Position numbers and translations under genes: made by a program. The notes under the pieces are model-generated. The model made no database searches and had not been told where the DNA came from. It saw only the letters and a list, made by a program, of their open reading frames with translations. Shown here one piece after another: positions 2,971-54,291 of a DNA stretch of 64,000 bases. Positions within the stretch are counted from its first letter, which is position 1. Every line of letters starts with the position of its first letter. Source of the stretch: Minisyncoccia bacterium (GTDB lineage Bacteria; Patescibacteriota; Minisyncoccia; SW-4-49-11); assembly GCA_044356325.1 (NCBI GenBank), contig JBIKWJ010000004.1, forward strand, positions 402 to 64,401. The letters are read 5' to 3'.

Positions 2971-2983
2971 CGTATTATATTAT

Positions 2984-3592: not shown

Positions 3593-3593
3593 A

Positions 3594-10386: not shown

Positions 10387-10479
10387 ATATTTTAAGTGTA
10401 TTTTTTAGATTTTATACTAAATTTAGTATATCATATTCTATGTTTTTGTCTACGATGTATCTCATCTTAGTCATATTTA

Positions 10480-14179: not shown

Positions 14180-14326
14180 ACTATCTCTATATTAATTTCT
14201 ACACATCTTATATAGAGTATCATAGGATAGATGAATTGTCTAAAGTTTGTATGAGATGAGGAGATCGTAGATAAAACAGATTACTATATATTACTAGCCT
14301 ACAAAACATAGCTTGATACAAAAATT

Positions 14327-14434
14327 GTCCTCCTTTGCCTGTCTGCGGTAGGCAGGGCGGAGGTGGATAGAGTTTAAGTCTTTATCTTATCCACCCCCAC
14401 CTTTCAGGCTCCCCCCTCCTAAGGGGGACACCCC
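14327..14434. repeat. GC-rich palindromic repeat element copy
   Basis: gtcctcctttgcc...ggcggaggtggatagag...atccacccccacc...cctcctaagggggacacccc. It is preceded by the terminal motif gatgaggagatcgtagata at 14256. Confidence 0.7.
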
Positions 14435-14446
14435 ATGTTACATTCT

Positions 14447-15178
14447 CTACAAAGGCACTTCTATTACTATAAACTCAGCATTTTGAATTACCTTAATATG
14501 AATTTCCTCCTCAATATCCCATATACCAATTGCATCTCTTGTATCTAATTCTTGATTATTCACTCTAATTGCACCCGATATCACAAAAATATATATTCCA
14601 TTTCCCGTTTTTTTGAGACTATAGTCTAATTGCTTATTTTGCTCTACATAGGCTCTTTGAAACCAAGCATCCTGATATACTCCAATACCTTCTTCATGCG
14701 TTTCTATTGGGGATATAATCTGATGGAAAATATTAGGTGATTTGTATATATCAAAGTATCTCTGCTCATAGCGTGGTACTATATTCATTTTATTTGGGAT
14801 AACCCAAATTTGAAGAAGAGTTACTGGCTTATCACTATAAGCATTGAATTCACTATGGAATACCCCGCTACCCGCACTCATCACCTGTATATCCCCAGGC
14901 TTTGATACTGCAATATTACCCATATTATCTTTATGCTCTAATCCCCCTGACAAAGGTATCGTAATAATCTCCATATTATTATGAGGATGAGCTCCAAATC
15001 CCCTCCCTCCCGCTATACTGTCATCATTGAGTACTCGCAAAGCTCCAAATCCCATACGATTTTCGTCGTAATATTCTGCAAAGCTAAAACTATAATTGGT
15101 TTTAAGCCAATCATAATCAGCCTTGCCACGAGAATCGGATGTATATATTAGTGATTGCATATATATTAAGTATATCAT
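14447..15178 (-). CDS. Pirin-family cupin protein
   Basis: GFGAHPHNNMEIITIPLSGG ... VMSAGSGVFHSE, the pirin N-terminal cupin signature. Confidence 0.85.
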   Translation of the reverse strand: MIYLIYMQSLIYTSDSRGKADYDWLKTNYSFSFAEYYDENRMGFGALRVLNDDSIAGGRGFGAHPHNNMEIITIPLSGGLEHKDNMGNIAVSKPGDIQVMSAGSGVFHSEFNAYSDKPVTLLQIWVIPNKMNIVPRYEQRYFDIYKSPNIFHQIISPIETHEEGIGVYQDAWFQRAYVEQNKQLDYSLKKTGNGIYIFVISGAIRVNNQELDTRDAIGIWDIEEEIHIKVIQNAEFIVIEVPL

Positions 15179-15225
15179 AAGAGAAAAAGAGAGATATCAT
15201 GGATACCCCCCTCAATAGGCTTTAG

Positions 15226-15498
15226 CTAACTCAGCCAAGATAAAATGTAGCTAGTCGTCATCAGAAGCAATGCCCTCTCATAAGACAAACTCCCCGGTAC
15301 TATACCTATACTGTTAAACCATAAAAATAAGCGCCTAAAACTTGATATATCTTCCTGCACGGGTCCTACTTGATACCCTGTGCCTGCAAGATAATTCATC
15401 AAAGAGATGAATATCACCTCCAGCTCATCACTCCAATCATCTTGCCTCCTGGCGAAATTTCTTGCTTTCTCAACAACTGCTTGTGCTGGCACTATCAT
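15226..15498 (-). CDS. Hypothetical protein with atypical (GC-richer) composition
   Basis: 90-aa ORF with no recognisable motifs. Confidence 0.3.
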   Translation of the reverse strand: MIVPAQAVVEKARNFARRQDDWSDELEVIFISLMNYLAGTGYQVGPVQEDISSFRRLFLWFNSIGIVPGSLSYERALLLMTTSYILSWLS

Positions 15499-15580
15499 GA
15501 TAGAATTGGGAAGAACACCCTATAAAAATACTCTATCATAGCTGCTTTGTCAATATGCATCAGCAAAGAAAAAGAGAGGC

Positions 15581-15976
15581 CTATGCAGCCCCTCTGTCGA
15601 TAATTTTTTGAGATAAAGGAATTGGTTGTGGATTGGCCAATAACTTTTCAGCCTCTGTGACATCTTGGCAATAATCACCCTCACATCTACATTGCTTATA
15701 CACATCTGTATGCTCTCGAGTAATTGTGCCATAACAATCTGTTTCCAATAAAGTGACAGCTTCATCAAAAGAAAGACATCCAGGCTGGGCAATAGCAAGA
15801 ATCTTATTGAGACCTACATAAGTGCGCATTGTATCAATGACTTTATATCGTCGTGTTGGTTTTTCAACTGCAAATACAACTAAGCTAGCAAATGCTTGAT
15901 GATGTGCTTCTGGACTATCAGGATAATTAGATTTCCCCCAAGCCAAAGCTTTTTCATGGGGTCCTGTTTCAGTCAT
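15581..15976 (-). CDS. Hypothetical protein with atypical composition
   Basis: 131-aa ORF. An alternative overlapping frame (15550..15798) was rejected. Confidence 0.4.
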   Translation of the reverse strand: MTETGPHEKALAWGKSNYPDSPEAHHQAFASLVVFAVEKPTRRYKVIDTMRTYVGLNKILAIAQPGCLSFDEAVTLLETDCYGTITREHTDVYKQCRCEGDYCQDVTEAEKLLANPQPIPLSQKIIDRGAA

Positions 15977-16088
15977 TGATTTGAATGCAACAACTTTTTA
16001 AGAATATCCTAATACCAAATTGATGTCAATTCTATATTGATCAATCGCTCAATATTATATATACTAATACTATATTTATATCTCATTT

Positions 16089-16376
16089 ATGAACGCAAAA
16101 ACAATAGCCCCAGGAGTAGTACATGATATCCCTGATGATTTGAGAGAATTATTATTGAGTAATAATACCTTGCTTGAAAAATGGAATAATCTCACTGACC
16201 TTGCCCGCAATGAATGGATTTGTTATGTTACCATAGTCAAAAAACCCGAGACCAGAGCCAATCATATCACTCGTCTATCTGAAGAATTACTTATGGGAGA
16301 AAAAAGACCCTGCTGCTGGCCAGGTTGCCCACATCGCAGAGAAAGTGCTAAAAAGTGGTTTAAGAATTTGGAGTAA
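16089..16376 (+). CDS. Small hypothetical protein, possibly YdeI/OmpD-associated-like
   Basis: 95-aa ORF with C-terminal RPCCWPGCPHRRESAKKWF. Confidence 0.35.
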   Translation: MNAKTIAPGVVHDIPDDLRELLLSNNTLLEKWNNLTDLARNEWICYVTIVKKPETRANHITRLSEELLMGEKRPCCWPGCPHRRESAKKWFKNLE

Positions 16377-16378
16377 GA

Positions 16379-16747
16379 TTACTCCCTACTCCTCAATACA
16401 AAGCTAACAGTGACCGTATCCCCCACCTCAATAGATTCAGATTTTCTCAATTTAGCGGGTAATGGGATAAATTGTATTCCATCTCCCATAGGCATCAGAG
16501 ATGTATTCCAAGAGTATTTGCCCACTGTTGCAGTAATCGCTACCAGCCCTCTATCCGCAAAATATTTTGTCTCATCTGTAATCTCATGAGGCACTCGTAC
16601 ATATACCCAGGGATTTGCTAAATCAAAAATCTCAACTAACCCGGTAACAATAGTATTCTTTCCTGATTTTGTATAAGAAAGTTTGGACATATATCTATCT
16701 ATTAATTGTCTATATATTAGTATATTCAAAAGATATACTTTATGCAA
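16379..16747 (-). CDS. Hypothetical protein
   Basis: 122-aa ORF. Confidence 0.4.
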   Translation of the reverse strand: MHKVYLLNILIYRQLIDRYMSKLSYTKSGKNTIVTGLVEIFDLANPWVYVRVPHEITDETKYFADRGLVAITATVGKYSWNTSLMPMGDGIQFIPLPAKLRKSESIEVGDTVTVSFVLRSRE

Positions 16748-16761
16748 ATGCAGTATTTGTT

Positions 16762-16856
16762 GTCCCTACCTATCGGCAGGCAGGCCCCTTTGGAGGGGGA
16801 AGCCTGGAAAGCGGGGGTGGATAAATTATAAACTTGAACCCTATCCTCCTCCACCG
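16762..16856. repeat. GC-rich repeat element copy, opposite orientation to 14327-14434
   Basis: gcgggggtggataaa...ctatcctcctccaccg is the reverse complement of the ggaggtggatag / atccacccc modules. Confidence 0.65.
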
Positions 16857-16882
16857 TCGCAAAGCGAGATATTTCATAATTC

Positions 16883-17278
16883 TTATCTATTCAAATAGGT
16901 TATACTCAATTGCAATATAGTCGCAAAGGAAACCCAGAGTAAATAAGGTATACTTGCATAAGTCACCCAGCGTAAATACGGCCAAATAGCAATCATCGCC
17001 CAGATGAGAGTAATCAATAATAGGATAATATCCAGAGAAGCTAATACATTATTCCTGAGCCCAAATTGCAATGGTGCAAAGGCAGCATTGAATACTAAAT
17101 TGAGTATAAAAGGTAAAGCTACTATCCATGGAATTTTCCCTATAGCCGCTTGATAGAATACCGTACCGAAACTGGCAAATATGATCAAATATAATATTGA
17201 CCATACCGATCCAAATAAATAGGATGGAGGAGCCCAGAAGGGTTTGATCAAATTCTCATACCAATTATAGGTGTTCAT
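16883..17278 (-). CDS. TspO/MBR-family tryptophan-rich membrane protein, short
   Basis: N-terminus WYENLIKPFWAPPSYLFGSVWSILY matches the TspO consensus (L.KP.W.PP..F..VW..LY). It has 4-5 TM helices. Confidence 0.6.
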   Translation of the reverse strand: MNTYNWYENLIKPFWAPPSYLFGSVWSILYLIIFASFGTVFYQAAIGKIPWIVALPFILNLVFNAAFAPLQFGLRNNVLASLDIILLLITLIWAMIAIWPYLRWVTYASIPYLLWVSFATILQLSITYLNR

Positions 17279-17424
17279 ATTTTTTATATTATATAGCTTA
17301 TTATAGCATAGAAAACTACTAAAGAGATATTGACATTATACTACTATATAGTACTATATAGTAGTATATTCTTACACTAAACCTAGTTAGGAATTGCACA
17401 TTCCCAACCCTACACGGAGGAACC

Positions 17425-18411
17425 ATGTCTATTCCAACCCCAATTTCTATCGCAAAAAATATATTCAGGTATGTTAAGGATAACCCAAATTTAGCTCTCA
17501 ATAACCAAGAAGAAGATATTCCTGATATCTGGACCTTTGATACAAAACACACGCCTATATCGACCTTAATGGACACTGGAGGTTATGGAATATTCACAGA
17601 AGTCTTTGACCGAACCAATATTATTCCCACAAGGTGGGTCAATTTTTCTCGACAATTCTACACTCCAGAAGCAAAACTATTAATAGCATTAGAACATGCC
17701 TGTGAAAACTCATCATGGCTAACATGGACCCCTGAGTTAATGCGTGATGACTTTGTGCTAAATGGCCACTGGTTTACCAAAAAACAACAACATGCAACCT
17801 ATGCTCATATTATCAAGCTCTTACGTCAAGGTCAATGTAATAATATTCAAATAGTACCTCCAACCAAGAGTTATAGAGATGCTCCTAATGCGTTTGGTGT
17901 GCAATTAAATGATGATGTGGTAGTTGATTTCCCTAGCGACTATGGGACACTGGTTCTGATGCGAAAAGAGCTGTATTACAGGATTACGTATACTGACAGA
18001 GATATTCCCCGGAACATACATGAATATCCATCTGATATCAAACCAAGATGTCAGATGATTGGTCGTACAAAGCAATTTGAAGGTAGAGAATTCAGAGGTA
18101 GAGAAGGGTCTTTGCTTAAAACATTATACCAATTACTGCCAGCCTTAAAAGCGCAAGATATAATCTATGTCCTATCAGAAGTGAATAGGGGTAAGACAAG
18201 ACCAAGATTTATTGGGCACATGAATGTCACAGCTCTGAATAAATCCCACGGGACATTAACAGGAGCGGTCCACTTAGATCAGATGTATATGACCTCCCGC
18301 AACTGCAGAGGCCTATCCGAGGAGGAGACTGATTCGTTGAGGAGAAGTAGTGGATCTTGGGAATCTTATTACTCACAAACTAAGGATGTTTGGGAAATAA
18401 TACAAACCTAG
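17425..18411 (+). CDS. Hypothetical protein with atypical composition
   Basis: 328-aa ORF followed by a rho-independent terminator. Confidence 0.5.
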   Translation: MSIPTPISIAKNIFRYVKDNPNLALNNQEEDIPDIWTFDTKHTPISTLMDTGGYGIFTEVFDRTNIIPTRWVNFSRQFYTPEAKLLIALEHACENSSWLTWTPELMRDDFVLNGHWFTKKQQHATYAHIIKLLRQGQCNNIQIVPPTKSYRDAPNAFGVQLNDDVVVDFPSDYGTLVLMRKELYYRITYTDRDIPRNIHEYPSDIKPRCQMIGRTKQFEGREFRGREGSLLKTLYQLLPALKAQDIIYVLSEVNRGKTRPRFIGHMNVTALNKSHGTLTGAVHLDQMYMTSRNCRGLSEEETDSLRRSSGSWESYYSQTKDVWEIIQT

Positions 18412-18433
18412 TCTCATCAGTTTTAATACCTCC

Positions 18434-18470
18434 GGCACCCAGAGACAAAATCAATGGGTGCTTTTTTATT
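18434..18470 (+). terminator. Rho-independent terminator
   Basis: gcaccc-(15-nt loop)-gggtgc followed by TTTTTTATTTT. Confidence 0.55.
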
Positions 18471-18574
18471 TTAAAGATAGTTTTTGAGTATATTCAAAAC
18501 TACTCCCTACTATGATTTGACGATCAATCTTTTACTATTTGATTATACATTATCTTTAAGTTCATAAAATCTAT

Positions 18575-18964
18575 TTACCCTACCCTCGTACACAATTCCA
18601 CCAAGAATCCATTGATATCGCGGACATAGCCAACTATTTGACCCCAAGGTTTTTGAGCTGGTTCTTTGACTACCATTGCTCCTGCTTCAATAGCTTGTTT
18701 GAAGGTGCTATCAATATCATCAGTTACAAAGGTAATTTCAAAAGCTGGTGGTATTATGGATAAATCAGATTTATTGATCGCAATCCCATTATATTCAGCT
18801 ACGCTATAATCTGCGAATGCTAATGTAGTTCCTCCCGTTTCTAGCTCAGCATAATCTTTTTCAGGAGTTATGAGTTTTTGGCTAAATCCAAATGCTTTGA
18901 TATAAAAATCTATTGTCTCCTCAACATTGTCAACATATAAAATGGTATAGCTATAAGTTATCAT
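18575..18964 (-). CDS. VOC / glyoxalase-bleomycin-resistance family protein
   Basis: 129 aa with the beta-alpha-beta-beta-beta module pattern ILYVDNVEETIDFYIKAFGF. Confidence 0.7.
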   Translation of the reverse strand: MITYSYTILYVDNVEETIDFYIKAFGFSQKLITPEKDYAELETGGTTLAFADYSVAEYNGIAINKSDLSIIPPAFEITFVTDDIDSTFKQAIEAGAMVVKEPAQKPWGQIVGYVRDINGFLVELCTRVG

Positions 18965-19012
18965 AGAACATTCTCTTTAGTGTATATTTCTATTATAGCA
19001 TAAACAGAGAAT

Positions 19013-19498
19013 TTATACTTTTTGCAAGAATAATTCAATATCTTCCTTGATATCCATAGGACTTGTCGTAGGAGCATATCGTTTAATCGTAAGTCCATCT
19101 GATGAGACCAAAAATTTGGTAAAATTCCACTTTATGGCATCACCCAAAAGACCAGCATGAGCATGCTCTTTGAGATAACTGAATACTGGATGAGTATTCT
19201 CTCCATTTACATCAATTTTCTCTGAAAGTAAAAAGGATACCCCATAATTGATCTGACATACATTTACTACGGTTTCATTGCTCTCAGGTTCTTGCCCAGC
19301 AAATTGATTACAAGGAAAACCAATCACTATCAAACCTTTATCTTTATACTCTTGATGTAGTTTCTCTAAATCAACAAATTGAGGAGCTAAACCACATTTA
19401 GTAGCGGTATTGACGAGTAATAAGACTTTACCCTGAAATTGTTGCATAGAAACGGTATTCCCCGCAGTATCGTTAAAGGAGAGATCATAGAATGACAT
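19013..19498 (-). CDS. gpx: Glutathione peroxidase
   Basis: Motifs LLVNTATKCGLAPQ, IGFPCNQFAGQEP and KWNFTKFLV. Confidence 0.9.
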   Translation of the reverse strand: MSFYDLSFNDTAGNTVSMQQFQGKVLLLVNTATKCGLAPQFVDLEKLHQEYKDKGLIVIGFPCNQFAGQEPESNETVVNVCQINYGVSFLLSEKIDVNGENTHPVFSYLKEHAHAGLLGDAIKWNFTKFLVSSDGLTIKRYAPTTSPMDIKEDIELFLQKV

Positions 19499-22124: not shown

Positions 22125-22817
22125 TTAAATTAAATCTAACTTTCTCTTAGCAGTATTATAAAATTCTTCTACTATTTCATATCCATAAAATATTCCATTT
22201 CTCTTTAACACTTCAACTCCTAAATTAGCTGTACCCATAAAAGGATCTAGAACTTTCATTTCTTTTATAAAATATTTTCCCAAAATAAAATCTATTATTG
22301 CTTTAGGTTGAGGACAAGGATGTTCAGGTACAGATATGTAGTTAATATATAGAATATCACCAGAATATTGCTTTACTTTTGATTTACTAAAGACTAATAT
22401 TTGATGACAATTAGAATGGGAATACTCTTTAGTTATATAATTTTCATCAAATCCATGATCTGGTAATTCAAAACCATTATCTGAATTAACAAAATTAATA
22501 TGTCTAGTTTCTAAAAATAAATTACAATCTAATACAGCAAATTTCTGTACTAAACCAGCAAGTTGAATATATTTATTATCAGTAAAAATACTGTCTGATA
22601 TTTCTATTATTAATTTTCCATTTTTATTTAATTTTTTACTAATTTCTAAAATAACATTTTTTATAAAATAAATATATTTATCTAAATCTAAATCATCATC
22701 AAAATTTCCATAATAAGTTTTTATATTATAAGGTGGACTAAAAATAGCCAAGTCTATTGACTCTTCATCTATTTCTGACATAGATTCTGAGGAATGATTA
22801 AAAATTTTATATTTCAT
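22125..22817 (-). CDS. DNA methyltransferase, N6-adenine/N4-cytosine type (beta-class motif order), apparently orphan
   Basis: Motif IV IFSPPYN is near the N-terminus and motif I DPFMGTANLG near the C-terminus. No restriction endonuclease candidate is adjacent. Confidence 0.7.
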   Translation of the reverse strand: MKYKIFNHSSESMSEIDEESIDLAIFSPPYNIKTYYGNFDDDLDLDKYIYFIKNVILEISKKLNKNGKLIIEISDSIFTDNKYIQLAGLVQKFAVLDCNLFLETRHINFVNSDNGFELPDHGFDENYITKEYSHSNCHQILVFSKSKVKQYSGDILYINYISVPEHPCPQPKAIIDFILGKYFIKEMKVLDPFMGTANLGVEVLKRNGIFYGYEIVEEFYNTAKRKLDLI

Positions 22818-23277
22818 AAATTTAGTATACTCCTAAAACCATTGTTATAATATAGCAAAATTATTTTTTAACACTTTATTATTATATCATATTTTTCATT
22901 GTGAATTATGAGTTGTGAATTATTGATTACATCCACTTTTCAATTAAGAAAATTATTTATGGATATAAGCTAGCACCTACATATATTTTATGAAGCATTC
23001 AATATCAATAACAAATCTTTTTCCCAATCAAAGGATGTCGTTTCCATATTTTGTAATTTTTCTACAGCTTTTAGGCATTTTGCATCTTTTTTGATAAATT
23101 TTTTCAATAATTCCACTATATCTACCATAAAATCTCCTACTGTTCCGTCTGAATCGTCTACTCCATTCATTAATTTTTTTTTCTAATCTCAGTAGTATTT
23201 TTACTAAAATTTTAGCTGTCTGCAAACTAACTGGCAATTTAGATATAACTAGTATCATTATCTACTCCTTTTATTAG

Positions 23278-23304
23278 TCAGATATTTACTGTATTGACTA
23301 GAGT
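23278..23304 (+). repeat. 27-bp perfect direct repeat, copy 2
   Basis: Identical to 20774-20800. Here it forms the -35 region of a good sigma70-like promoter. Confidence 0.8.
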
Positions 23305-23322
23305 TGTATATCAGTTTAATAT
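23294..23322 (+). promoter_or_regulatory. Sigma70-like promoter (TTGACT-17-TAATAT) upstream of the small membrane protein and RND transporter genes
   Basis: Hexamers with 17-nt spacing, 20 nt upstream of the ORF starting at 23344. Confidence 0.5.
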
Positions 23323-23343
23323 AGATTTATACTAAATCATTTT

Positions 23344-23601
23344 ATGAATATACAAGATATTGTTATTACTATTGCAACTATTATTCTTTCTGTATCCCTG
23401 ATCCCCCAAGTTATATTAGGATTTCAGACTAAAACTCAAGATATTACGTATATTACTTCTATATCTTCTCTTATCTCTTTATTATTTATGGCAGTTGCTT
23501 TTGCTTCTCTTGAACTTTGGTTATCTGCTATTATTACTGTACTCAATGCAATACCCTGGTTTATATTTATGATTCAAAAATATATTTATACAAAAAAATA
23601 A
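23344..23601 (+). CDS. Small membrane protein
   Basis: 85 aa with two hydrophobic helices. Confidence 0.4.
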   Translation: MNIQDIVITIATIILSVSLIPQVILGFQTKTQDITYITSISSLISLLFMAVAFASLELWLSAIITVLNAIPWFIFMIQKYIYTKK

Positions 23602-23707
23602 TATATTAAAAAAAGCTCCTCTTTTCATTTAGCAATCTATTATTTTGTTTGCGAGAAACCTATATATCGTATATACTGAATACAGTACTTATTAATCAAT
23701 TATCAAT

Positions 23708-28142: not shown

Positions 28143-28190
28143 AAGGGATAATTATATTAATACGTATAGTATAACATACACTGTATTATT

Positions 28191-28314
28191 GTCCTCCTTT
28201 GGAGGAGGTACCCGCAGGGTGGAGGTGGATAATCAGAAAATTCTATTTTATATTAAACTTATATCTCTTTCCACCCCGTCAGGCAAAGCCTACCACCCCT
28301 CAAGAGGGGAATTT
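28191..28314. repeat. GC-rich repeat element copy between rarA and the fusA terminator
   Basis: gtcctcctttggaggaggtacccgcagggtggaggtggataa ... ccaccccgtcaggc...cccctcaagaggggaatttt. Confidence 0.7.
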
Positions 28315-28370
28315 TAAAACAAGACACAATTTCAAGGGAGGACATTTAAATCTGTTCCCTACCTACCAAA

Positions 28371-31617: not shown

Positions 31618-31646
31618 ATTGTAGTATATATATTGTTATTTGTCAA
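31618..31646 (-). promoter_or_regulatory. Sigma70-like promoter of the str operon (TTGACA-17-TACAAT on the minus strand)
   Basis: Consensus hexamers with 17-nt spacer, about 80 nt upstream of the rpsL start. Confidence 0.6.
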
Positions 31647-31654
31647 TATAAAGT

Positions 31655-31869
31655 TGGGGTTTCGTAGCGGAGGCTTTAAGTCCCTCCCATATTTTAGTTT
31701 GGGAGGGGGTTTATCCCGGCATATTTCGTAGAGTCAGAGACCTAGCCGATATATAGTTTCGTAGGGGCGACCTTTAAAGCCACCTGTACTATTTTGTCCT
31801 CCTTCGGAGGAGCTTTTGTCCCTCCTATATTTATTTAGGAGGGGGTGCCCCTCAGGGCGGAGGTGAATT
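31655..31869. repeat. GC-rich repeat element cluster upstream of the str-operon promoter
   Basis: tcgtaggggcgacc, gtcctccttcggaggag, aggagggggtgcccctcagggcggaggtga. Confidence 0.7.
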
Positions 31870-31922
31870 AGAGCAAAATACTAAATTAAAAAGATTTTAT
31901 ACATACACCTGTTATTGTAAAT

Positions 31923-31961: not shown

Positions 31962-32948
31962 ATGCACATTCACAAACTCATGGCTAGATTCGATCCCTTT
32001 TATCTTCCACCTATTTGGACTGTACCCGATGATGAGATTCACATAATTTCATGGTTCGGCATGCGCCCAGATAACGGCAGAATGGGATTTTTTTCTAAAA
32101 TCGCTACTCCAGGGCCGCACATAATTGTCCCAGGGGCAAAATTGGTAGGTGCATATAGTACAAATCAATTCCCCGTATATCTATTTCGGCATGACACTCC
32201 AACACCTGGAGATTATGCTGAACTAGAGCTGCCAGATATCACATTAACTGCAAAAGTTAGTATAATAGCTCAACTCAAGGGAAATGGTTTACGCCAAAAA
32301 GCAAGTAGTGTTTTCAATGCACATTATAATGCCGAAGATCAAGATGTATTACAGGCAACTGAACGCATCTTGAACCCTTATATCCGTCTAGTTCTGCAGA
32401 GACATTCTTATACAGAATACACCAATCAGCGTGCAGATGGAAAAACCCTAAATGAGATTCAAGTCTCCAAAATTACACCGGACCAATTGCTACAAGCTCT
32501 TGGCCTGAAGCAATTTGGGGCTAGAATTGATAAAGATACAGGTGTTGCAGAAGAAGATATTAGAAAAATTGGTGAAACAATCCTAGACAAACTTGACAAT
32601 ATCGGAGTTGACTTAATGTCGATTAACATCGATGATTTGTCTCTTCCTGATACAGTCAATGAGGCTAGGAATAGATCTGCCGTAGAGAAAGCCGAGCAAC
32701 AAGCTGCACTCGATCGCGAAATAGCCCGAGCTCGAGTAATTGAGCAGCAGGTCGAAAACCGAGTTAAAGAGGCACAGGGATTGCTCAAAGCCGTGAAAGC
32801 ATTAAGTGAGAATAAAACTATCTCCGATGAACAAGCCTACAGAGCATTGGTAGAGATACCTGCTTTGAAGGAAATTGTGGGAGACAAAGATAAGTTCATC
32901 ACTGAAGGTGGGCTTAGTGGCCTCCTTGCCATGCTACAATCAAAGTAG
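31962..32948 (+). CDS. SPFH / band-7 (stomatin-prohibitin-flotillin-like) domain protein
   Basis: 328 aa with an N-terminal beta-rich domain. A C-terminal charged coiled coil (EARNRSAVEKAEQQAALDREIARARVIEQQVENRVKEAQ) is typical of band-7 proteins. Confidence 0.5.
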   Translation: MHIHKLMARFDPFYLPPIWTVPDDEIHIISWFGMRPDNGRMGFFSKIATPGPHIIVPGAKLVGAYSTNQFPVYLFRHDTPTPGDYAELELPDITLTAKVSIIAQLKGNGLRQKASSVFNAHYNAEDQDVLQATERILNPYIRLVLQRHSYTEYTNQRADGKTLNEIQVSKITPDQLLQALGLKQFGARIDKDTGVAEEDIRKIGETILDKLDNIGVDLMSINIDDLSLPDTVNEARNRSAVEKAEQQAALDREIARARVIEQQVENRVKEAQGLLKAVKALSENKTISDEQAYRALVEIPALKEIVGDKDKFITEGGLSGLLAMLQSK

Positions 32949-33918: not shown

Positions 33919-34833
33919 TCAAACCAAGGCTGAGATAATATATTGTGTGATGAGGAAAGCCCCCATAATTATCATAAGTCCCACCACTGCATTCCTAATT
34001 CCATCTAAAGCCTGACCTACTTCTCCTGGATTAGAACTTGTCATATATTTAAAACCTGACATTACCAGTATTGCAACGGTAATAGCACCTAATATTCCTA
34101 ATAAAGCATTAATAATACCCGCTATAAGATCTGGAATACTATTGAACTTAATAGGATTAGTGAATCCTACACTTTGAGGCGCTGATGAGTCAGTAGTTCC
34201 TCCCCCACCAGTAGATCCAGGAGTAGCAGTACTTGCAGTACAAGTTGGTTTACCACCTTGAGTAGCACAAACTTGCCCAGAGGTACAAGTCTTTCCATCA
34301 CATTTACCATTAACACTTGCATCTTTTGTACAAGTAGGCTTACCTCCCTGAGTGGCACATACTTGCCCAGAAGTACAGGTCTTTCCATCACAAGTATCAG
34401 CCGTTGAACCTCCTGAGGTTGATCCACCAGGACTACCTGGTGGTTTTTTACTAATGTCACATGGTCCTGTTTTAGGCCCTGGAGCTCTACATACACCTAA
34501 TTCACCACCAGATTTACAAGCATCTCCAATTATAACACAATCTTCCCACCCATTCTTCTCAGAATCAAGTGTTTTACAAGTCAATGGATTATTTTTTGCT
34601 ACACTATCTGCATTTGTCCTATCACAAAAACCACTTTCAGTCTGCGTTGCAGTTCCTGCAGATTGCCCTCTTCCTCCAGTAGTTACTTCTCTTTGATAGG
34701 TACAATCATCTCCATTTTTTTTACCAGAACATGCGGTATTTTGTGGAGAACTCTGAGCAAAGCTATTCTGAGGGATAATTAATCCTATACCTAATAAAAG
34801 TGAGAATAAAATATATTTCATACTAATTTGCAT
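33919..34833 (-). CDS. Secreted Cys-rich protein with two 30-aa tandem repeats and a C-terminal VirB2/TrbC-like pilin hairpin (array member 7)
   Basis: Signal peptide present. Repeat CDGKTCTSGQVCATQGGKPTCT appears twice. C-terminus LIAGIINALLGILGAITVAILVMSGFKYMTSSNPGEVGQALDGIRNAVVGLMIIMGAFLITQYI is the shared paralogous hairpin. Confidence 0.6.
   Translation of the reverse strand: MQISMKYILFSLLLGIGLIIPQNSFAQSSPQNTACSGKKNGDDCTYQREVTTGGRGQSAGTATQTESGFCDRTNADSVAKNNPLTCKTLDSEKNGWEDCVIIGDACKSGGELGVCRAPGPKTGPCDISKKPPGSPGGSTSGGSTADTCDGKTCTSGQVCATQGGKPTCTKDASVNGKCDGKTCTSGQVCATQGGKPTCTASTATPGSTGGGGTTDSSAPQSVGFTNPIKFNSIPDLIAGIINALLGILGAITVAILVMSGFKYMTSSNPGEVGQALDGIRNAVVGLMIIMGAFLITQYIISALV
34238..34395. 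repeat. Tandem in-frame DNA repeat, 2 x ~90 bp (63-bp near-identical cores)
   Basis: acaagt(t/a)gg(t/c)ttacc(a/t)cc(t/c)tgagt(a/g)gcaca(a/t)acttgcccaga(g/a)gtaca(a/g)gtctttccatcaca appears at 34240 and 34330. Confidence 0.8.
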
Positions 34834-35239
34834 TTAATGGTATATTGATATCATCTACTGTGTCATCTGCTGGGAATACAAATCCTAATACGGTATTGGA
34901 TACGACAAAGGCAAAGAATATAATAATCAGTCCTATGATTGCATTTACCATTCTTTTTTGAGCTGATTCAGCCTGCTTCTCATCCCCTCCTGCTGTTGCA
35001 TATTCAAATCCTGCATATAGGAATATAATAAATATTATAATTCCTATAAATCCTAATATCCACCTTATAATAATCGACACTGTCTCTATCAGGCTTGGTC
35101 CCTCAGCTATTCCGGTATTAATTGGGATTGTCCCTGGATCAGGGAGAGTGGCATCAGGGGCTCTTTGAGCTAGAGATATATTAGAACTTAATACAAATCC
35201 CCCCATCAATAAAGCTATTATAATCAATAAGACTCTCAT
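34823..35239 (-). CDS. VirB2/TrbC-like pilin-family protein (array member 6)
   Basis: Signal peptide, then IIRWILGFIGIIIFIIFLYAGFEYATAGGDEKQAESAQKRMVNAIIGLIIIFFAFVVSNTVLGFVF. This is two hydrophobic helices joined by a short Gly-rich loop, as in T4SS pilins. Confidence 0.55.
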   Translation of the reverse strand: MRVLLIIIALLMGGFVLSSNISLAQRAPDATLPDPGTIPINTGIAEGPSLIETVSIIIRWILGFIGIIIFIIFLYAGFEYATAGGDEKQAESAQKRMVNAIIGLIIIFFAFVVSNTVLGFVFPADDTVDDINIPLNAN

Positions 35240-35299
35240 ATCTATTTTACTATTCTATATATTACAAGTATATCAAGTATTCTATTATCTGACAAGAAG

Positions 35300-35560
35300 A
35301 TGTATAAGATGAGGAAATTGTAGACACTGAGTTCTATTCAAAGTGTAAGCTTGTATTTTATCCACCCCGTCTCCTCCCATACAAAAGTATGAGAGGAGAC
35401 ACCCCTCAAGAGGGGAATTTTTCGTACAGTACATTTTTATATATTCCCCTCTTGAGGGGTGCCGTCGCTAGACGGTGGGGTGGAATACGGGCGACTGTAA
35501 GGTCACCCCTACACAACTCACACTTTATCTAGATATATGTCTCATCTTCTGAAGAAGATG
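35300..35560. repeat. GC-rich palindromic repeat element (MITE/REP-like) with AT-rich terminal motifs, inside the pilin array
   Basis: Near-perfect ~130-bp palindrome: ccaccccgtctcctcc...cccctcaagaggggaatttttcgtacagtac | atttt...ttcccctcttgaggggtg...gacggtggggtgg. The same modules occur at 53911-54272 in opposite orientation. Confidence 0.75.
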
Positions 35561-35643
35561 AGACAAAGGATATAGTCTATCCCCTAAATAATAAAAAGGG
35601 ATATGATAATCCCTTTTTATTATTTGTATATTAGATACATTAT

Positions 35644-36030
35644 TTAGACATTTCCTTGGAATACGAATGACAATACTGCATTTGAAGCAACAAAGGCAAA
35701 GAATATAATAATTAATCCAATTACTGCATTAATCATTCGAGATGTTGCACTTTTTGCTTTTCCTTCATCTCCTCCTGCTGTTGCATATTCAAATCCTGCA
35801 AATAAGAAGATAATAAATATAACAATTCCAATAAATCCTAATGCCCATCGAATAACGAGAGAGATGGTTCCTGTCAAACTAGTAGATTGAAAAACTCCTG
35901 TTCCAGTTGGAATAACTCCTATTCCTCTATTATCTGGGGTAGGTGATACAGCTCCAGCTAAAGCAGGTGCTAATACTAATAAAGGTAATAATACTCTTGT
36001 CACTATTGATTTTATTCTGGAGTTATTCAT
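35644..36030 (-). CDS. VirB2/TrbC-like pilin-family protein (array member 5)
   Basis: Start trimmed to MNNSRIKSIVTRVLLPLLVLAPALAGA (signal peptide). Hairpin is IRWALGFIGIVIFIIFLFAGFEYATAGGDEGKAKSATSRMINAVIGLIIIFFAFVASNAVLSFVF. Confidence 0.55.
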   Translation of the reverse strand: MNNSRIKSIVTRVLLPLLVLAPALAGAVSPTPDNRGIGVIPTGTGVFQSTSLTGTISLVIRWALGFIGIVIFIIFLFAGFEYATAGGDEGKAKSATSRMINAVIGLIIIFFAFVASNAVLSFVFQGNV

Positions 36031-36129
36031 AAGAATATCTATAATTATTAAATAATATGTCCTATAAGTATATATTATCATATAATATATACTTATGCAA
36101 GTAATAGCATTGTGGATAAGTCTATTATA

Positions 36130-36468
36130 TTATAAGCCAAAGACAAATCCTAAGACCGCATTAGACAAAACAAATGCTAACCCTACAATAAACACTCCTA
36201 TTACTGCTGCTGCAATTCTACTTATGGCTTCTTCGGTTTTTTTAGGATCTCCCCCTGCTGTTGCATATTGGAATCCAGAAAATAGTATAAGGACAAATAA
36301 TATTATCCCTATTAACCCGAGGCTCCATCTTACAATAGCAGATACAAAGGTAAATATATCTCCTTGTTCTGTTACCCCAGTACCAGTAGGAATACCCAAA
36401 ACAGGTGGTACAGATTCCTGAGCTTTGGCTGTAGCTATTATAAGATTTGCTATAAGTTTTTCTAACAT
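36130..36468 (-). CDS. VirB2/TrbC-like pilin-family protein (array member 4)
   Basis: VRWSLGLIGIILFVLILFSGFQYATAGGDPKKTEEAISRIAAAVIGVFIVGLAFVLSNAVLGFVFGL. Confidence 0.55.
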   Translation of the reverse strand: MLEKLIANLIIATAKAQESVPPVLGIPTGTGVTEQGDIFTFVSAIVRWSLGLIGIILFVLILFSGFQYATAGGDPKKTEEAISRIAAAVIGVFIVGLAFVLSNAVLGFVFGL

Positions 36469-36479
36469 ATATAAGATTA

Positions 36480-37151
36480 TTAAGCGCCAGCAGCAAGTAA
36501 ACCACTAGTTACAAAATTAGTAATGAGGAATGCCCCCATAATAATAAGCAATCCAATCACGGCATTGGTAATAGCTCCTGTAGCAGCTGCTGTTTGGCTA
36601 GCATTTCCAGAGGACGTCATATAAAGATATCCTTGTAATACAATGATTATAAAAAATACAGTTCCAAGAAGCCCTAATATCCAGCGTATAATATTAGCGA
36701 CATATCCTATGAGAGTTCCTCCTGTATTAAGTCCTGATCCAGCATTTCTGAATTGATTTAACCCCTGAGACAGTCCATTTGATTCACTATTAATATTATT
36801 ACCGCCAGTTGTAGGTGTTCCATTTGGAGAGTTTGGTGTATTTGGATTTTGCTTAGCATCTGCTGCAGGTTTTAATGTATTGGCTTTAGGTACAGGAGCA
36901 CATACAATTTCCTTTGCTTGATTTTGAATACATGCTTGTCCAGAGCTACATTTAACAGTAGAGTCTCCTCGGCAATCTCCATTACTTTCTGCCTGATTTT
37001 CCAAACATTTTGTAGCACCATCTACTGTTACACAGACAAAATCTCCCGTACAGTTAGGACCAGTGCCACAAGCAGCTAAAGCATTATCTGCCCCCCCCAT
37101 AAATCCGATTGCAAATAGAATTGCTAAACTTGTTGATAAAATAAATCTCAT
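36480..37151 (-). CDS. Secreted Cys-rich protein with a C-terminal VirB2/TrbC-like hairpin (array member 3)
   Basis: Signal peptide. Cys module CGTGPNCTGDFVCVTVDGATKC...CRGDSTVKCSSGQACIQNQAKEIVC. C-terminus IRWILGLLGTVFFIIIVLQGYLYMTSSGNASQTAAATGAITNAVIGLLIIMGAFLITNFV. Confidence 0.55.
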   Translation of the reverse strand: MRFILSTSLAILFAIGFMGGADNALAACGTGPNCTGDFVCVTVDGATKCLENQAESNGDCRGDSTVKCSSGQACIQNQAKEIVCAPVPKANTLKPAADAKQNPNTPNSPNGTPTTGGNNINSESNGLSQGLNQFRNAGSGLNTGGTLIGYVANIIRWILGLLGTVFFIIIVLQGYLYMTSSGNASQTAAATGAITNAVIGLLIIMGAFLITNFVTSGLLAAGA

Positions 37152-37181
37152 AATATCTATATTTAATTATTTTTAATTATA

Positions 37182-37904
37182 TCATCTTTTTCTTAATTTC
37201 CAAATAAATAACCCAAGCCCCCCAGCAAGAAATAGTATTCCTCCTATTAAAATAGCTATATTTCCGGATGTTTTAGATTGTTCTGGATCTGAATTTGTAT
37301 CAGTATTAGGGGTAGGAGTATTGGTAGATAATAGTATAGTTCCTGCCTCATCTCGAATAACTCCATTTTCTTTTTGAAGGGTTTTCTGAGTTTCCTCTGA
37401 TAATGTAATATCTGGACCAAGACAATCTGCTATACAGGTATTATTATTCTCCCCTTTTTCATATTCACAGACATTATTTTGATTGCAAGTACTGTCCTTG
37501 GTTACATCTATATTCAATACTTTTCCATTTTGACTCTTGATATTAATAGCCTTAACATGAGGGAAATAAGGAATATTTATCACAAAAGTACCTTCTTTAT
37601 AGGGATATATTAGAGTTTGAGGAAAAGTGTATTGATAAGCCTCTAAATTTACCTGGAAATTATTATCTACAGGAAGAGCTGCTCTATCGTAAATACTTAA
37701 AGTATCATCAGTATCCTGTACCTGTATTGGCTCTGAGACAAATTTATCTAGACGAATTTCATCAGTAGCTTTGTCATAAAATAAAGATACTTGATAACTT
37801 TTGGCAGTACTAATCAATGGGAGGAATAGTAGGGTTAAGAATATGGTGTAAAAAGAGAATTTCATAGTATTGATATTATTGTTTACAAGCCCCTGTTTGC
37901 TCAT
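37182..37904 (-). CDS. Secreted protein with a small Cys module and a C-terminal TM anchor (array member 2). Start is ambiguous; 37865 is the alternative.
   Basis: Signal peptide MKFSFYTIFLTLLFLPLISTA, module DSTCNQNNVCEYEKGENNNTCIADC, and C-terminal anchor ILIGGILFLAGGLGLFIWKLRKR. It lacks the pilin hairpin. Confidence 0.5.
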   Translation of the reverse strand: MSKQGLVNNNINTMKFSFYTIFLTLLFLPLISTAKSYQVSLFYDKATDEIRLDKFVSEPIQVQDTDDTLSIYDRAALPVDNNFQVNLEAYQYTFPQTLIYPYKEGTFVINIPYFPHVKAINIKSQNGKVLNIDVTKDSTCNQNNVCEYEKGENNNTCIADCLGPDITLSEETQKTLQKENGVIRDEAGTILLSTNTPTPNTDTNSDPEQSKTSGNIAILIGGILFLAGGLGLFIWKLRKR

Positions 37905-39375
37905 CAGCTAACATTTTAGCGCAGGTTTCTGCAAATGGATATGCTCTAGTTTTATCATTTTGTTGTTCACAACCCACAATACTTGCCCACTGACATCTAT
38001 AAGAGCTGTTCCTAAATGATTGACAGTCAGTAATTCCGTTCTTTTTCAAAGTAGCAGCAACTGCTGCATCTTGATATTGTGGAGCCATATTATAATACGC
38101 AAATGTACCCTCTTTGATAGTATAAGTACCTGGTTTAACTGTGGGGACGCCCGCTACGGCTGCCCAAGAAGCCCAAGTAGTTGACAACATCTGAAATCTA
38201 CCATAAGCATCACTGTTAAGTCCGGTAGTATTGTATAGATTAGGATTTTCTGCTCCTGGATGTATATTTTGAGATTGAGGATACATTTTTCCACCTACTA
38301 ATCTAAAATAGCCCGACCTATCAGAGGCTCCTTCATAAAAAGATATAGTTCGCATTACGGCAGATATATTATCATCTAAATTAGTTGCGTCTACACAAGC
38401 AACACTTAATGATCCAACATTACCACTACCTCCACCTGTGGTTGCCGCGCCTCCTCCATTTGAGCCATTATCATTAAAAGTGCTCGCAGTGTCACATTTT
38501 ACTTCGAATATTTTACCTGATTGAAAAGTGAATACTGCTGAGAAATTTTGTTCTTGGAAACCAAGCCCTACGAGGAGAAAACTAAATAAGAGAAAACTTG
38601 ACATTACGAGTAATAGACCAATTACCGCATTAGTAATAATGCTATATCCTGTACTTACCCCCCCAGGATTACCGGCTGAGGTAAGTATATATACTCCACC
38701 AATTACAATACTTAATACTGCCAGTGAAGCGAGTAGACCCAAAGCTAAATTAAAGATGTCTCGAATTAAGATAAATATATCACAAATAGTACAGTCTCTA
38801 CTGGTACCACATTTAACAAGTCCTGTTTCTGAATTGGTTGAGCTTCCATTAGTTGTTCCACCACCAGTATTGACTAGTCCAGGAGTATTAGAACCAGTTG
38901 AACCCCCAGAGGTACCGACTTGGTTGCCTCCTCCACCAGCATTAGATCCAGATGGTGAATTAGTGGTACCACCAATAGTTGCATTTTCTTTTATACATTT
39001 AAAGTTACTACATTTAAGACCTGCTACACATTCATTTCCATTCCCAGAACAAGACTGTCCTTCTGTTTTATTTCCTCTTGGGCTGGAACAAACTTGATTA
39101 ATACAAGCCAATCCATTTTGACAGGTATCTCCGGAGCAAGATGATCCTAAACTTCTACGACAAGTTAACCCTAATCCTAGATTATTTTTATCTTTAACTT
39201 GGCATTTTCCATTTAAACGAGAAATCCCATTTTGAAATGTACAATTTTGCTCTAATGCTGTTGCCCTAGCACTACAGGCTCCATCAGCTGTCTGAGCATA
39301 AGTAGATTTAATACTAAAAAATGAAGCTATTAAAAAGATTATACTAAAGACTATACCAAACTTTATATATTTCAT
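37876..39375 (-). CDS. Tripartite secreted protein (array member 1): Cys-rich N-domain, central VirB2/TrbC-like hairpin, and C-terminal phage-lambda-type lysozyme/lytic transglycosylase domain
   Basis: Signal peptide, then Cys modules (CSGDTCQNGLACINQVC, CSGNGNECVAGLKCSNFKC) and a Gly/Thr-rich linker. Hairpin is IRDIFNLALGLLASLAVLSIVIGGVYILTSAGNPGGVSTGYSIITNAVIGLLLVMSSFLLF. The C-terminal ISFYEGASDRSGYFRLVGGKMYP...AYGRFQMLSTTWASW aligns with lambda R lysozyme (LAWSEGTD...YDVIVGG...AGRYQLLSRWWDAY), including the catalytic Glu. Confidence 0.65.
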   Translation of the reverse strand: MKYIKFGIVFSIIFLIASFFSIKSTYAQTADGACSARATALEQNCTFQNGISRLNGKCQVKDKNNLGLGLTCRRSLGSSCSGDTCQNGLACINQVCSSPRGNKTEGQSCSGNGNECVAGLKCSNFKCIKENATIGGTTNSPSGSNAGGGGNQVGTSGGSTGSNTPGLVNTGGGTTNGSSTNSETGLVKCGTSRDCTICDIFILIRDIFNLALGLLASLAVLSIVIGGVYILTSAGNPGGVSTGYSIITNAVIGLLLVMSSFLLFSFLLVGLGFQEQNFSAVFTFQSGKIFEVKCDTASTFNDNGSNGGGAATTGGGSGNVGSLSVACVDATNLDDNISAVMRTISFYEGASDRSGYFRLVGGKMYPQSQNIHPGAENPNLYNTTGLNSDAYGRFQMLSTTWASWAAVAGVPTVKPGTYTIKEGTFAYYNMAPQYQDAAVAATLKKNGITDCQSFRNSSYRCQWASIVGCEQQNDKTRAYPFAETCAKMLADEQTGACKQ

Positions 39376-51314: not shown

Positions 51315-51385
51315 TGAGTTCTGTAGGGGCGACCTGGTAGTCGCCTGTGCTATTATGTTCCCCCTCTGAAGACGGTGAGCTAGGT
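51315..51385. repeat. GC-rich repeat module (ctgtaggggcgacc..gtcgcctgtg type)
   Basis: Shares ctgtaggggcgacc and tcgcctgtg with 53931-53960 and 31757-31790, and (reverse-complemented) with 35488-35512. Confidence 0.7.
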
Positions 51386-51392
51386 TTCGATA

Positions 51393-51427
51393 GTAGAAAA
51401 AGAGGGACAGCATTACGCGCTGTCCCT
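51393..51427 (-). terminator. Rho-independent terminator for the clamp-like gene
   Basis: gggacagc-attacgc-gctgtccc followed on the minus strand by CTTTTTCT. Confidence 0.6.
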
Positions 51428-53910: not shown

Positions 53911-54272
53911 ATCGTAGATAAATTGTGAGTTCTGTAGGGGCGACCTTACAGTCGCCTGTGTTCTCCACCCCGTCTGTCTAGAGACATCCACCCCTCAAGA
54001 GGGGAATTTTTCGGACAGAGCCTTTTGTTATATACTGACTCCTATCTACTCACAACCCATGAGGGAAATTTTTAGAACAGTACATTGTATATATTCCCCT
54101 CTTGAGGGGTGGACAGCTTCGCTGGACGGGGTGGATAAAATACAAACTCAAACTCTATCCACCTCCGGCCTAGCGGCGACCTCCTCCAAAGGAGGACAAT
54201 AAAACTGTCCCTCGCTGGCGAGGGTGCCCGTAAGGGCGGGTGTGGACTGAGCTAATTCCCCTCTTGAGGGGT
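53911..54272. repeat. ~360-bp composite cluster of GC-rich palindromic repeat modules (largest copy of the family)
   Basis: Contains ctgtaggggcgaccttacagtcgcctgtg, ccaccccgtc, cccctcaagaggggaattttt ... ttcccctcttgaggggtg, gacggggtggata, tatccacctcc, gacctcctccaaaggaggac and ttcccctcttgaggggtag. All of these recur at other loci. Confidence 0.8.
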
Positions 54273-54291
54273 AGCAAAATAATATCAGAAA

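Follow-up and report, generated by a model that had tools for sequence, protein, structure and literature searches.

Repetitive extragenic palindromic (REP) sequences of bacteria have been sorted into GTAG-tagged and CGTC-tagged super-families (PMC3733652). Members of the GTAG super-family carry this tetranucleotide directly 5' of a 20-40-nt imperfect palindrome. The CGTC group, which includes the Rickettsia palindromic elements (RPEs) RPE-4 and RPE-6 and the Neisseria dRS3/NIME sequences, is characterized by CCA tails, head-to-head dimers, copies inside genes and the lack of a known transposase; its families have 8-9-bp stems that open with A/T pairs, and loops of 4-5 nt (PMC3733652). Here we describe a hairpin-rich element in a 64,000-nt stretch of a Minisyncoccia genome of the Patescibacteria (termed the window; 35% GC across its 64 kb). 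The element occupies about 250 bp (about 35301-35550) between two pilin paralogues. [quoted passage not shown]

Both flanking genes lie on the minus strand, are co-directional and encode the Patescibacteria-type T4SS_pilin domain PF18895. They are members of a series of pilin-like genes (33919-39375), which an earlier note on this DNA had called tightly packed apart from the element. This description is correct, as the spacer with the element measures 404 bp, whereas the remaining spacers measure 11-48 bp or are replaced by gene overlaps. No open reading frame (ORF) of at least 60 aa is found in the spacer (35240-35643).

The earlier note had suggested that orthologous arrays be compared and that the element might be a recent insertion. 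Six further syntenic genomes were retrieved by using orthologues of the upstream pilin, so that seven could be compared, including the window. Their gyrA nucleotide identities to the window are 99% (L006), 96% (L007), 96% (L009), 91% (L011), 80% (L013) and 80% (L015); L008 and L012 are identical to L007 and L011, respectively, over the region fetched. The element is present in the window and in L007, and is absent from L006, L009, L011, L013 and L015. Thus, five of seven genomes lack it, including the relative with 99% identity. Spacer lengths follow this distribution: 404 bp (window) and 446 bp (L007) where the element is present, compared with 113 bp in L006 and 116-144 bp in L009, L011, L013 and L015. 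The L007 copy is orthologous, 89% identical and 42 nt longer. An insertion is therefore supported by a presence/absence difference of ~290 bp, but it is not a very recent one, because a 96% relative holds the orthologous copy.

An exact match to the window is found in a Joint Genome Institute (JGI) metagenome contig. Another two assemblies of this strain break off within the element, as is expected of a repeat. A metagenome scan for the orthologous promoter block, from which filled and empty alleles could be counted, yielded no matches.

The stretch that distinguishes filled from empty sites contains the repeat unit, a stray fragment of a terminal repeat and ~25 nt of older spacer, and its boundaries are ambiguous by 1-2 nt (T/TT). 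The unit has imperfect terminal inverted repeats at its ends, which agree in three blocks: AAGATGAG, TAGA(C/T)A and TGAGTT. The same terminal motif occurs at both ends of a copy in L073, at 14253 (+) and 10468 (-) of the window, and in L015, L064 and L007. At the two window positions, the motif stands alone as AAGATGAG..ATCGTAGA(C/T)A, and the one at 10468 has no adjoining GC-rich hairpin; these solo copies may be leftover terminal repeats or regulatory sites. Inside the terminal repeats, a sub-terminal pair (35333-35349 with 35517-35533; 17 nt, 76% complementary) forms the outermost stem in RNA folds.

The core of the unit (122 nt, 35362-35483) is built around an inner inverted repeat of 19 nt (35400-35418 and 35443-35461), which is 100% complementary with 24 nt between its halves. 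It is enclosed by an outer 8-bp pair, TCCACCCC at 35361-35368 with GGGGTGGA at 35477-35484. The two arms measure 57 and 41 nt. A 14-bp hairpin (35369-35400) separates the complementary blocks in the left arm, whereas in the right arm they are separated by an unrelated 5-bp hairpin (35462-35475). Because each arm bears a different hairpin, the core folds as a four-way junction and not as one long hairpin. The earlier note is therefore right about a strong inverted repeat, but wrong to call it a near-perfect palindrome of ~130 bp. The limits given there, 35300-35560, agree with the wider unit bounded by terminal repeats and not with the palindrome itself. DNA folding of the core gives -42.5 and -43.5 kcal/mol for the two strands (z -11.8 and -10.5 relative to shuffled sequences), and RNA folding of 196 nt (core plus flanks) gives -99 and -109 kcal/mol (z -12.2 and -14.1). 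Coordinates of all features at the site are given in Table 1.

Table 1. Features of the repeat unit at the pilin site and of its surroundings, in window coordinates
Feature	Position	Strand	Remarks
Downstream pilin paralogue	34823..35239	-	138 aa, PF18895
Promoter-like site TTGTCA-17-TG-TATACT of downstream pilin gene	35267..35295	-	Sequence match
Indel stretch (~290 bp)	35299..35588		Present in window and L007, missing in L006; comparison of filled and empty spacers
Left terminal inverted repeat TGTATAAGATGAGGAAATTGTAGACA	35301..35326	+	AAGATGAG at 35306-35313 pairs with CTCATCTT at 35541-35548
Sub-terminal block TCTATTCAAAGTGTAAGCTTGTATTTT	35333..35359	+	Imperfect pairing with 35513-35533
Left arm A: TCCACCCC-G-(14-bp hairpin 35369-35400)-A-CCCCTCAAGAGGGGAAT	35361..35419	+	Covariance model R1, 43.5 bits, E 1.9e-10
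AT-rich central spacer TTTCGTACAGTACATTTTTAT, loop of the long inner stem	35420..35440		Conserved among copies
Right arm A, inverted: CCACCCC-A-(CCGTC TAGC GACGG)-CA-CCCCTCAAGAGGGGAAT	35441..35485	-	Model R1, 42.3 bits, E 3.9e-10
GTAG-tagged REP-like hairpin GTAG-GGGTGACC-TTACA-GTCGCC	35490..35512	-	Copies in window
Right terminal inverted repeat AGAAGATGAGACATATATCTAGATAAA (read on - strand)	35524..35550	-	Matches left end
Stray 13-nt terminal-repeat fragment AGAAGATGAGACA	35553..35565	+	Direct repeat of 35301-35313; 13-bp hairpin with 35538-35550
Terminator-like hairpin and T-run of upstream pilin gene	35586..35625	-	17-bp stem; -13.2 kcal/mol as DNA
Upstream pilin paralogue	35644..36081	-	145 aa as called, PF18895

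Modules of the unit recur elsewhere. The 19-mer of the inner stem occurs six times in the window and never in 100 shuffles. Copies or single modules are located at 14324-14430, 16770-16870, 28180-28340, 31641-31880, 51315-51400 and 53915-54275, and all are intergenic. They share flanking motifs, among them GGGGTGGATAAAATACAA and TAGATAAA.TGTGAGTT, which bears out the earlier observation that the terminal motifs are seen at other copies. A second full copy (53915-54160) has the opposite orientation to the one at the pilin site. Copies related to the left hairpin differ by compensatory changes, and all still fold. The AT-rich central spacer is found again at 54070-54092 and in L007, L009, L125 and L073. 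On the minus strand, 35490-35512 reads GTAG-GGGTGAC-CTTACA-GTCGCC, with a 6-bp stem that includes one G.T pair. Further copies of this hairpin at 51315-51349, 53926-53960 (with a perfect stem at 53930-53952) and 31755-31785 bring the total to four in 64 kb, and GTAGGGGYGACC-N5-GTCGCC is found in six other Paceibacteria loci. A weak match to model R1 at 6729-6780 lies inside a gene and was judged to be noise.

Other gaps are filled or empty independently of the pilin site. The gap between gyrA and a methyltransferase gene is cleanly empty outside L009 and L007, measuring 66 bp in the window and L006. L009 has a 158-bp truncated copy of the element there, and L007 has that copy with an internal deletion. 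The junctions at this site are clean, although a possible TAGT duplication is itself not clean. The gap after fusA is filled only in the window and L009. The element is thus multi-copy, modular and variably present between genomes that are 96-99% identical. The data demonstrate gain and loss, but not necessarily transposition at the pilin site.

One module, termed arm A, is widely distributed, and the unit contains two inverted copies of it. Its 17-mer CCCCTCAAGAGGGGAAT was used to scan 185,579 species genomes and identified at least 118 loci, where ~70 matches are expected by chance. The sequence CCACCC(C/T) lies 12-50 nt upstream of the 17-mer in 106 of 138 matches, among the matches listed. 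The resulting consensus is (T)CCACCCCG(TC)-hairpin-(C)CA-CCCCTCAAGAGGGGAAT. A hairpin is almost invariably formed by the 7-34 nt in between, yet its sequence is unrelated between copies. In an alignment of 28 copies, the variable helix has 33 double changes, a number reached in none of 500 shuffles, and 95% of cells pair, compared with 33-53% when the partner is slid. This pattern shows that the predicted arm-A hairpins are maintained through compensatory change. In a reverse test conducted in metagenomes, only the 5' part, TCCACCCCGTC-N6-30-CCACCCCTC, was fixed. Of 137 matches, 75 go on with exactly AAGAGGGGAAT, and 98 have GAGGGG at most 16 nt away. In the second hairpin of arm A, the sequence itself is conserved, with variation confined to the loop.

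Carriers of arm A include many Patescibacteria, a metagenome-assembled genome (MAG) of Thermotogaceae, termite-gut Bacillota and Ignavibacteria/Kapabacteria, the last with a closed chromosome. The module is also present in Nitrospirota, Desulfobulbaceae, Sulfurovum and Simkania, and in the cultured Bacteroidota Parasediminibacterium, Flavobacterium and Pedobacter. Because a closed chromosome and cultured organisms are among the carriers, mis-binning does not explain the spread. The copies are mostly solo and face either way with respect to neighbouring genes, without bias, which suggests an element that acts at the DNA level. Some variants depart from the consensus. In the Kapabacteria chromosome (L050 and L052), an insert of ~25 nt, TACTTCGGCAGGCTCAGCACATCGC, lies between CCACCC and TCAAGAGGGGAAT, with at least three repeats in 8 kb. 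In L112 and L130, the second hairpin is extended and its pairing is kept. A phage origin was rejected, as the arm-A context is present in only 1 of 10 viral contigs that contain the 17-mer. The literal arm sequences, searched for in the literature, returned unrelated primers only.

In coding regions of genomes of the Nomurabacteria/Paceibacteria type, arm A is found as part of a composite (a variant arm plus arm A; AATTCTCCTCTTGAGGAGTACCCTTTAGGGGGAGGTGGA-spacer-arm A) that leaves the reading frame open. These in-frame modules are ~80 nt long, contain no stops and encode the peptide SPLEEYPLGGGG..STP..ATPQEGN. The composite resides at the same site of ksgA in four genomes (L035, with two sites, L088, L104 and L058), one of which has a second, solo arm. 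Two genomes each carry it in purD (L041 and L042) and in pheT (L049 and L123), and single genomes carry it in tgt (L108), tatD (L075) and an arginase-family gene (L031). A copy in the gene for RNase R (L113) lies on the opposite strand. Pfam searches confirm the host domains, which the insert stretches or splits. The first 39 nt of the ksgA insert are the same in L035, L088 and L104, whereas the codons on either side have diverged. Each of these genomes has a different first hairpin, with pairing kept. At orthologous sites, the nucleotides of the insert are more conserved than the codons around it. A profile search of a protein database with the encoded peptide found 11 short ORFs only and was uninformative.

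It is possible, though we hold this idea tentatively, that arm A represents an undescribed super-family of nucleic-acid elements that crosses phyla. Its form would be CCACCCCG, a hairpin of free sequence, CCA, a fixed hairpin CCCCTC-loop-GAGGGG, and AAT. The fixed second hairpin and the single-stranded tags could be recognized by a widespread enzyme, such as a transposase or another DNA- or RNA-processing protein, while the first hairpin would need only to pair. Such an element may colonize both intergenic gaps and the frames of essential genes of Patescibacteria (ksgA, purD, pheT, tgt, tatD, the arginase-family gene and the RNase R gene).

For the unit at the pilin site, the body may be viewed as a mosaic of GC-rich hairpins, in which a GTAG hairpin of the REP type is joined to two inverted arm-A modules around an AT-rich spacer. 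As single-stranded DNA or as RNA, the two arms would form a very stable four-way junction. The unit presumably entered the only bases that are dispensable here, the few that separate one pilin gene's terminator from the -35 box of its downstream neighbour, and was later lost in some lineages. Its spread would take place at the DNA level, by way of a transposase provided in trans.

The nature of such a transposase can be narrowed only tentatively. A DDE enzyme that recognizes the terminal repeats may be responsible, although we give this proposal somewhat less than even odds. The candidate is suggested by L015, in which a truncated transposase gene of the helix-turn-helix (HTH)/rve type adjoins the same terminal motif. 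In this genome, a hairpin cluster with terminal repeats at its bounds interrupts a transposase gene where the catalytic core begins. The gene fragment (14817-15915; HTH_28/HTH_23/HTH_Tnp_1) ends at the apparent first catalytic region (LHLDT..AIDSYTR). The interrupting cluster begins with TGAATAAGATGAGATGCATCGTAGACAA, and an identical 28-mer is located 110 nt upstream of the transposase gene. On this basis, the fragment is a possible remnant of the parent insertion sequence of the units bounded by terminal repeats. No full-length relative of it is present in 2 Mb of fetched loci.

REPINs (paired, inverted REPs) and BIMEs are mobilized by Y1 transposases termed REP-associated tyrosine transposases (RAYTs, or TnpA-REP). 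An HUH/Y1 enzyme of this kind, acting on the hairpins, is a more doubtful candidate for mobilizing the present element than is a DDE enzyme. Patescibacteria commonly carry a well-conserved RAYT-like Y1 gene (at least 7,810 database matches, 65-87% identity). It matches NCBIfam NF047646 (E 5.5e-12) with a score that falls short of the curated cut-off, and matches Pfam Y1_Tnp weakly. When E. coli RayT and an approximate IS608 TnpA sequence were used as tBLASTn queries against all fetched loci, the one weak match led to the gene in L123. This gene (5759-6495) and those in L146 and L148 (~2930-3720) are flanked on both sides by a CCCA(T/C)AGG..CCT(A/G)TGGG hairpin. The 3' hairpin supplies the TAG stop, and within the gene a third copy follows the HUH motif immediately, in frame (peptide HRSDLW). 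The remaining probability falls to spread through recombination or gene conversion.

Several observations weigh against the element being a mobile repeat of this kind. No transposase gene was found in the 64-kb window, although not all of its ORFs were scanned. The hairpin that flanks the RAYT-like genes (CCCATAGGTCNGACCTATGGG) is absent from the window, so that the RAYT connection to the window modules is only an analogy. Unlike in a REPtron, where the RAYT gene has the same REP on its flanks, no RAYT gene in the loci examined is flanked by the GTAG hairpin or by arm A. The target site at the pilin locus has no clear duplication, but only a loose direct repeat, CATCTTCTT(GT)CAG. Presence in a 96% relative together with absence from a 99% relative requires loss in L006 or exchange of alleles, and because the region is a recombination mosaic, presence and absence alone are no proof of transposition. 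Finally, selfish repeats are not usually conserved in sequence across phyla as strongly as arm A is, and this could reflect a host function instead.

The best-surviving alternative is a functional structured RNA, which might be a small RNA gene or a read-through element in the 3' untranslated region that shields the upstream pilin mRNA. Some REPs are known to protect mRNA from 3' exonucleases. The exceptionally stable folds predicted for both strands, the covariation of the variable helix and the conservation of arm sequence across phyla are all consistent with such an RNA. In addition, the plus strand has a promoter-like site (35261-35288), with a CCCCTC..GAGGGG hairpin and AATTTTT beyond it at 35402-35424. 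However, promoter-like matches are common in this AT-rich DNA, with 17 found and 8.5 expected. At the curated gathering score, Rfam families match the whole window only as RNase P RNA and one tRNA, a permissive scan of 35200-35700 returned sub-threshold noise only, and 18 loci from other phyla gave no Rfam matches. ARAGORN finds no tRNA-like gene at the element. Moreover, copies occur in either orientation relative to neighbouring genes, downstream of a terminator and in coding regions of either strand, and they vary between near-identical genomes. A structured RNA is therefore unlikely.

A second alternative is that the element serves as a recombination substrate, in which shared repeats provide homology for exchange between strains or paralogues. 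The pilin region is indeed an allelic recombination mosaic. The upstream pilin (35644-36081 in the window, 10001-10387 in L006) has only ~85% protein identity to its L006 counterpart despite 99% identity in gyrA, and a Band_7-like gene falls to 65-78% nucleotide identity between the same two genomes. Both are surface-related genes that are hypervariable or have been exchanged, on a background that is otherwise nearly clonal. Also, L001 and L013, which elsewhere are ~80% identical, share 97.6% identity over a 1.1-kb tract (L001 13332-14439). This tract comprises most of the Band_7-like gene (window 31962-32948) and the adjoining hairpin cluster (window 31641-31880, corresponding to L001 14103-14439), and it ends exactly at the edge of that cluster. 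Judged from these identities, the tract looks like a horizontal exchange bounded by a repeat. However, only one tract boundary coincides with a cluster, and dips in identity flank empty sites as well. The earlier proposal of a hotspot that shuffles pilin paralogues is also at odds with an array whose gene order, number and content are the same in all seven genomes. We consider a role of this sort quite improbable. Next to a hairpin cluster in L013, and in this one relative only, a type III restriction-modification module (14234-19478; N6_N4_Mtase, RhuM, ResIII) lies between the cluster and rpsL.

The earlier note had also raised the possibility that the pilin array is split into two units by the element, acting as an attenuator or terminator. 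Such a role would suit a very stable hairpin cluster between co-directional genes. However, a hairpin with a T-run directly follows the upstream pilin gene in all seven syntenic genomes, whether filled or empty; in L013 and L015 this hairpin differs in sequence, but its pairing is kept. The same TTGTCA...TATACT promoter block precedes the downstream gene in five of seven genomes (91-99% gyrA identity). This block (TTCTTGTCAGATAATAGAATACTTGATATAC) is retained at the empty sites of L006 and L009, and with substitutions in L011. Because terminator and promoter are already present at empty sites, the split of the array predates the element and is not caused by it. The element itself is located after the terminator, between it and the promoter and 4 nt upstream of the -35 box. 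It contains no stem followed by a U-run that would act convincingly in the pilin sense orientation: of the matches to such a pattern, one, on the plus strand, runs antisense to the pilin genes, and the two on the minus strand are weak and overlap. As five of seven genomes lack the element altogether, the attenuator proposal can be largely set aside. The effect on pilin expression is probably small, amounting at most to an extra barrier to read-through or an altered sequence upstream of the -35 box.

A host site that acts at the DNA level, such as a cruciform or a binding site for nucleoid or topology proteins, would resemble the BIMEs of E. coli, which bind gyrase, IHF and Pol I. By this analogy, the BIME-like mosaic architecture might be expected. 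The second hairpin of arm A, in which the loop alone varies, suggests recognition by a protein because it is conserved in sequence. Nevertheless, copies are tolerated in coding regions, presence varies between near-identical genomes and no candidate binding protein is known; such a site has very little to recommend it. Other candidates were dropped: integron attC sites (no matching signature), retrons or diversity-generating retroelements (no reverse transcriptase nearby), self-cleaving ribozymes (twister, hammerhead and hepatitis delta virus-like; on general consensus features only) and CRISPR arrays (no regular spacing).

Two other repeat-containing regions of the window were observed. A gene at 8518-10386 has about seven tandem repeats of ~200 nt (spacing 189-231 nt, 60-88% identity) and apparently encodes a repeat protein. 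The region 22818-23707 (890 bp) lacks an ORF of at least 90 aa and is unusually long for such a stretch. Of the arms of a 37-nt inverted repeat with 70% complementarity, one (22643-22679) lies just outside this region and one (23578-23614) within it.

The element is of little consequence to the pilin array itself, as nothing indicates that it affects the regulation or the order of the pilin genes. As a repeat, the copy at this site is ordinary, and the conservation of arm A and its occurrence in frame are the more interesting, collateral result. The literature searched contains nothing specific on palindromic, REP or MITE elements in the candidate phyla radiation (CPR)/Patescibacteria, so these data offer a first look at interspersed hairpin repeats in this group, in whose tiny, tightly packed genomes every intergenic base counts. 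The hairpin elements mark strain-level variation among 96-99% identical genomes, break metagenome assemblies and at least once coincide with the edge of a horizontally exchanged tract. Arm A is unusual among REP-like sequences in that ~45 nt are conserved across distant phyla and are tolerated in frame in essential genes. If one enzyme recognizes arm A, its identification would address the open question of what mobilizes REPs that have no RAYT partner (PMC3733652).

The element shares properties with four groups of known repeats and is identical to none. With the GTAG REPs, REPINs and BIMEs of E. coli and Pseudomonas, it shares GTAG directly 5' of a short GC-rich imperfect palindrome (35490-35512 on the minus strand), which agrees with the published definition of that super-family. 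It also shares inverted pairs that build larger folds, intergenic mosaic clusters that mostly follow genes, copy content that differs between strains, and hairpin-flanked RAYT-like genes in the same phylum. Unlike REPINs, the unit in the window has terminal inverted repeats, and the host is a Patescibacteria genome of 35% GC, where no description of REPs was found.

Arm A resembles the CGTC REPs in part. Its variable hairpin has a (C)GTC head in 74 of 114 copies and a CCA tail in 77 of 114, and it likewise forms head-to-head dimers, enters genes in frame, has no known dedicated transposase and is spread over several phyla, including Thermotogae, Bacteroidota and Sulfurovum. However, its stems are 3-14 bp long, of any sequence and mostly closed by G/C at the base, with loops mostly of 3-4 nt. 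Invariant flanks are added in arm A: CCACCC precedes the hairpin, and a second hairpin, CCCCTC-loop-GAGGGGAAT, follows it. Published intragenic peptides differ from STP..ATPQEGN. The two arms at the pilin site have the tails A and CA, not CCA, and their GTC is paired or inside the stem.

Rickettsia RPE-1 is comparable in that palindromic modules of ~80 nt without stops lie in frame in housekeeping genes, here those of related Patescibacteria. RPEs are limited to Rickettsia and relatives, whereas arm A crosses phyla, and the copy at the pilin site is intergenic. Finally, the unit resembles MITEs, such as the Correia elements of Neisseria, BOX and RUP of pneumococci and ERIC of enterobacteria, in its non-coding sequence, terminal inverted repeats and size (150-300 bp), in a modular build like that of boxA-B-C, and in its intergenic location near promoters and terminators. 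It differs from them in that the pilin unit has no clear target-site duplication and that the truncated HTH/rve gene of L015 is the only hint of a parent.

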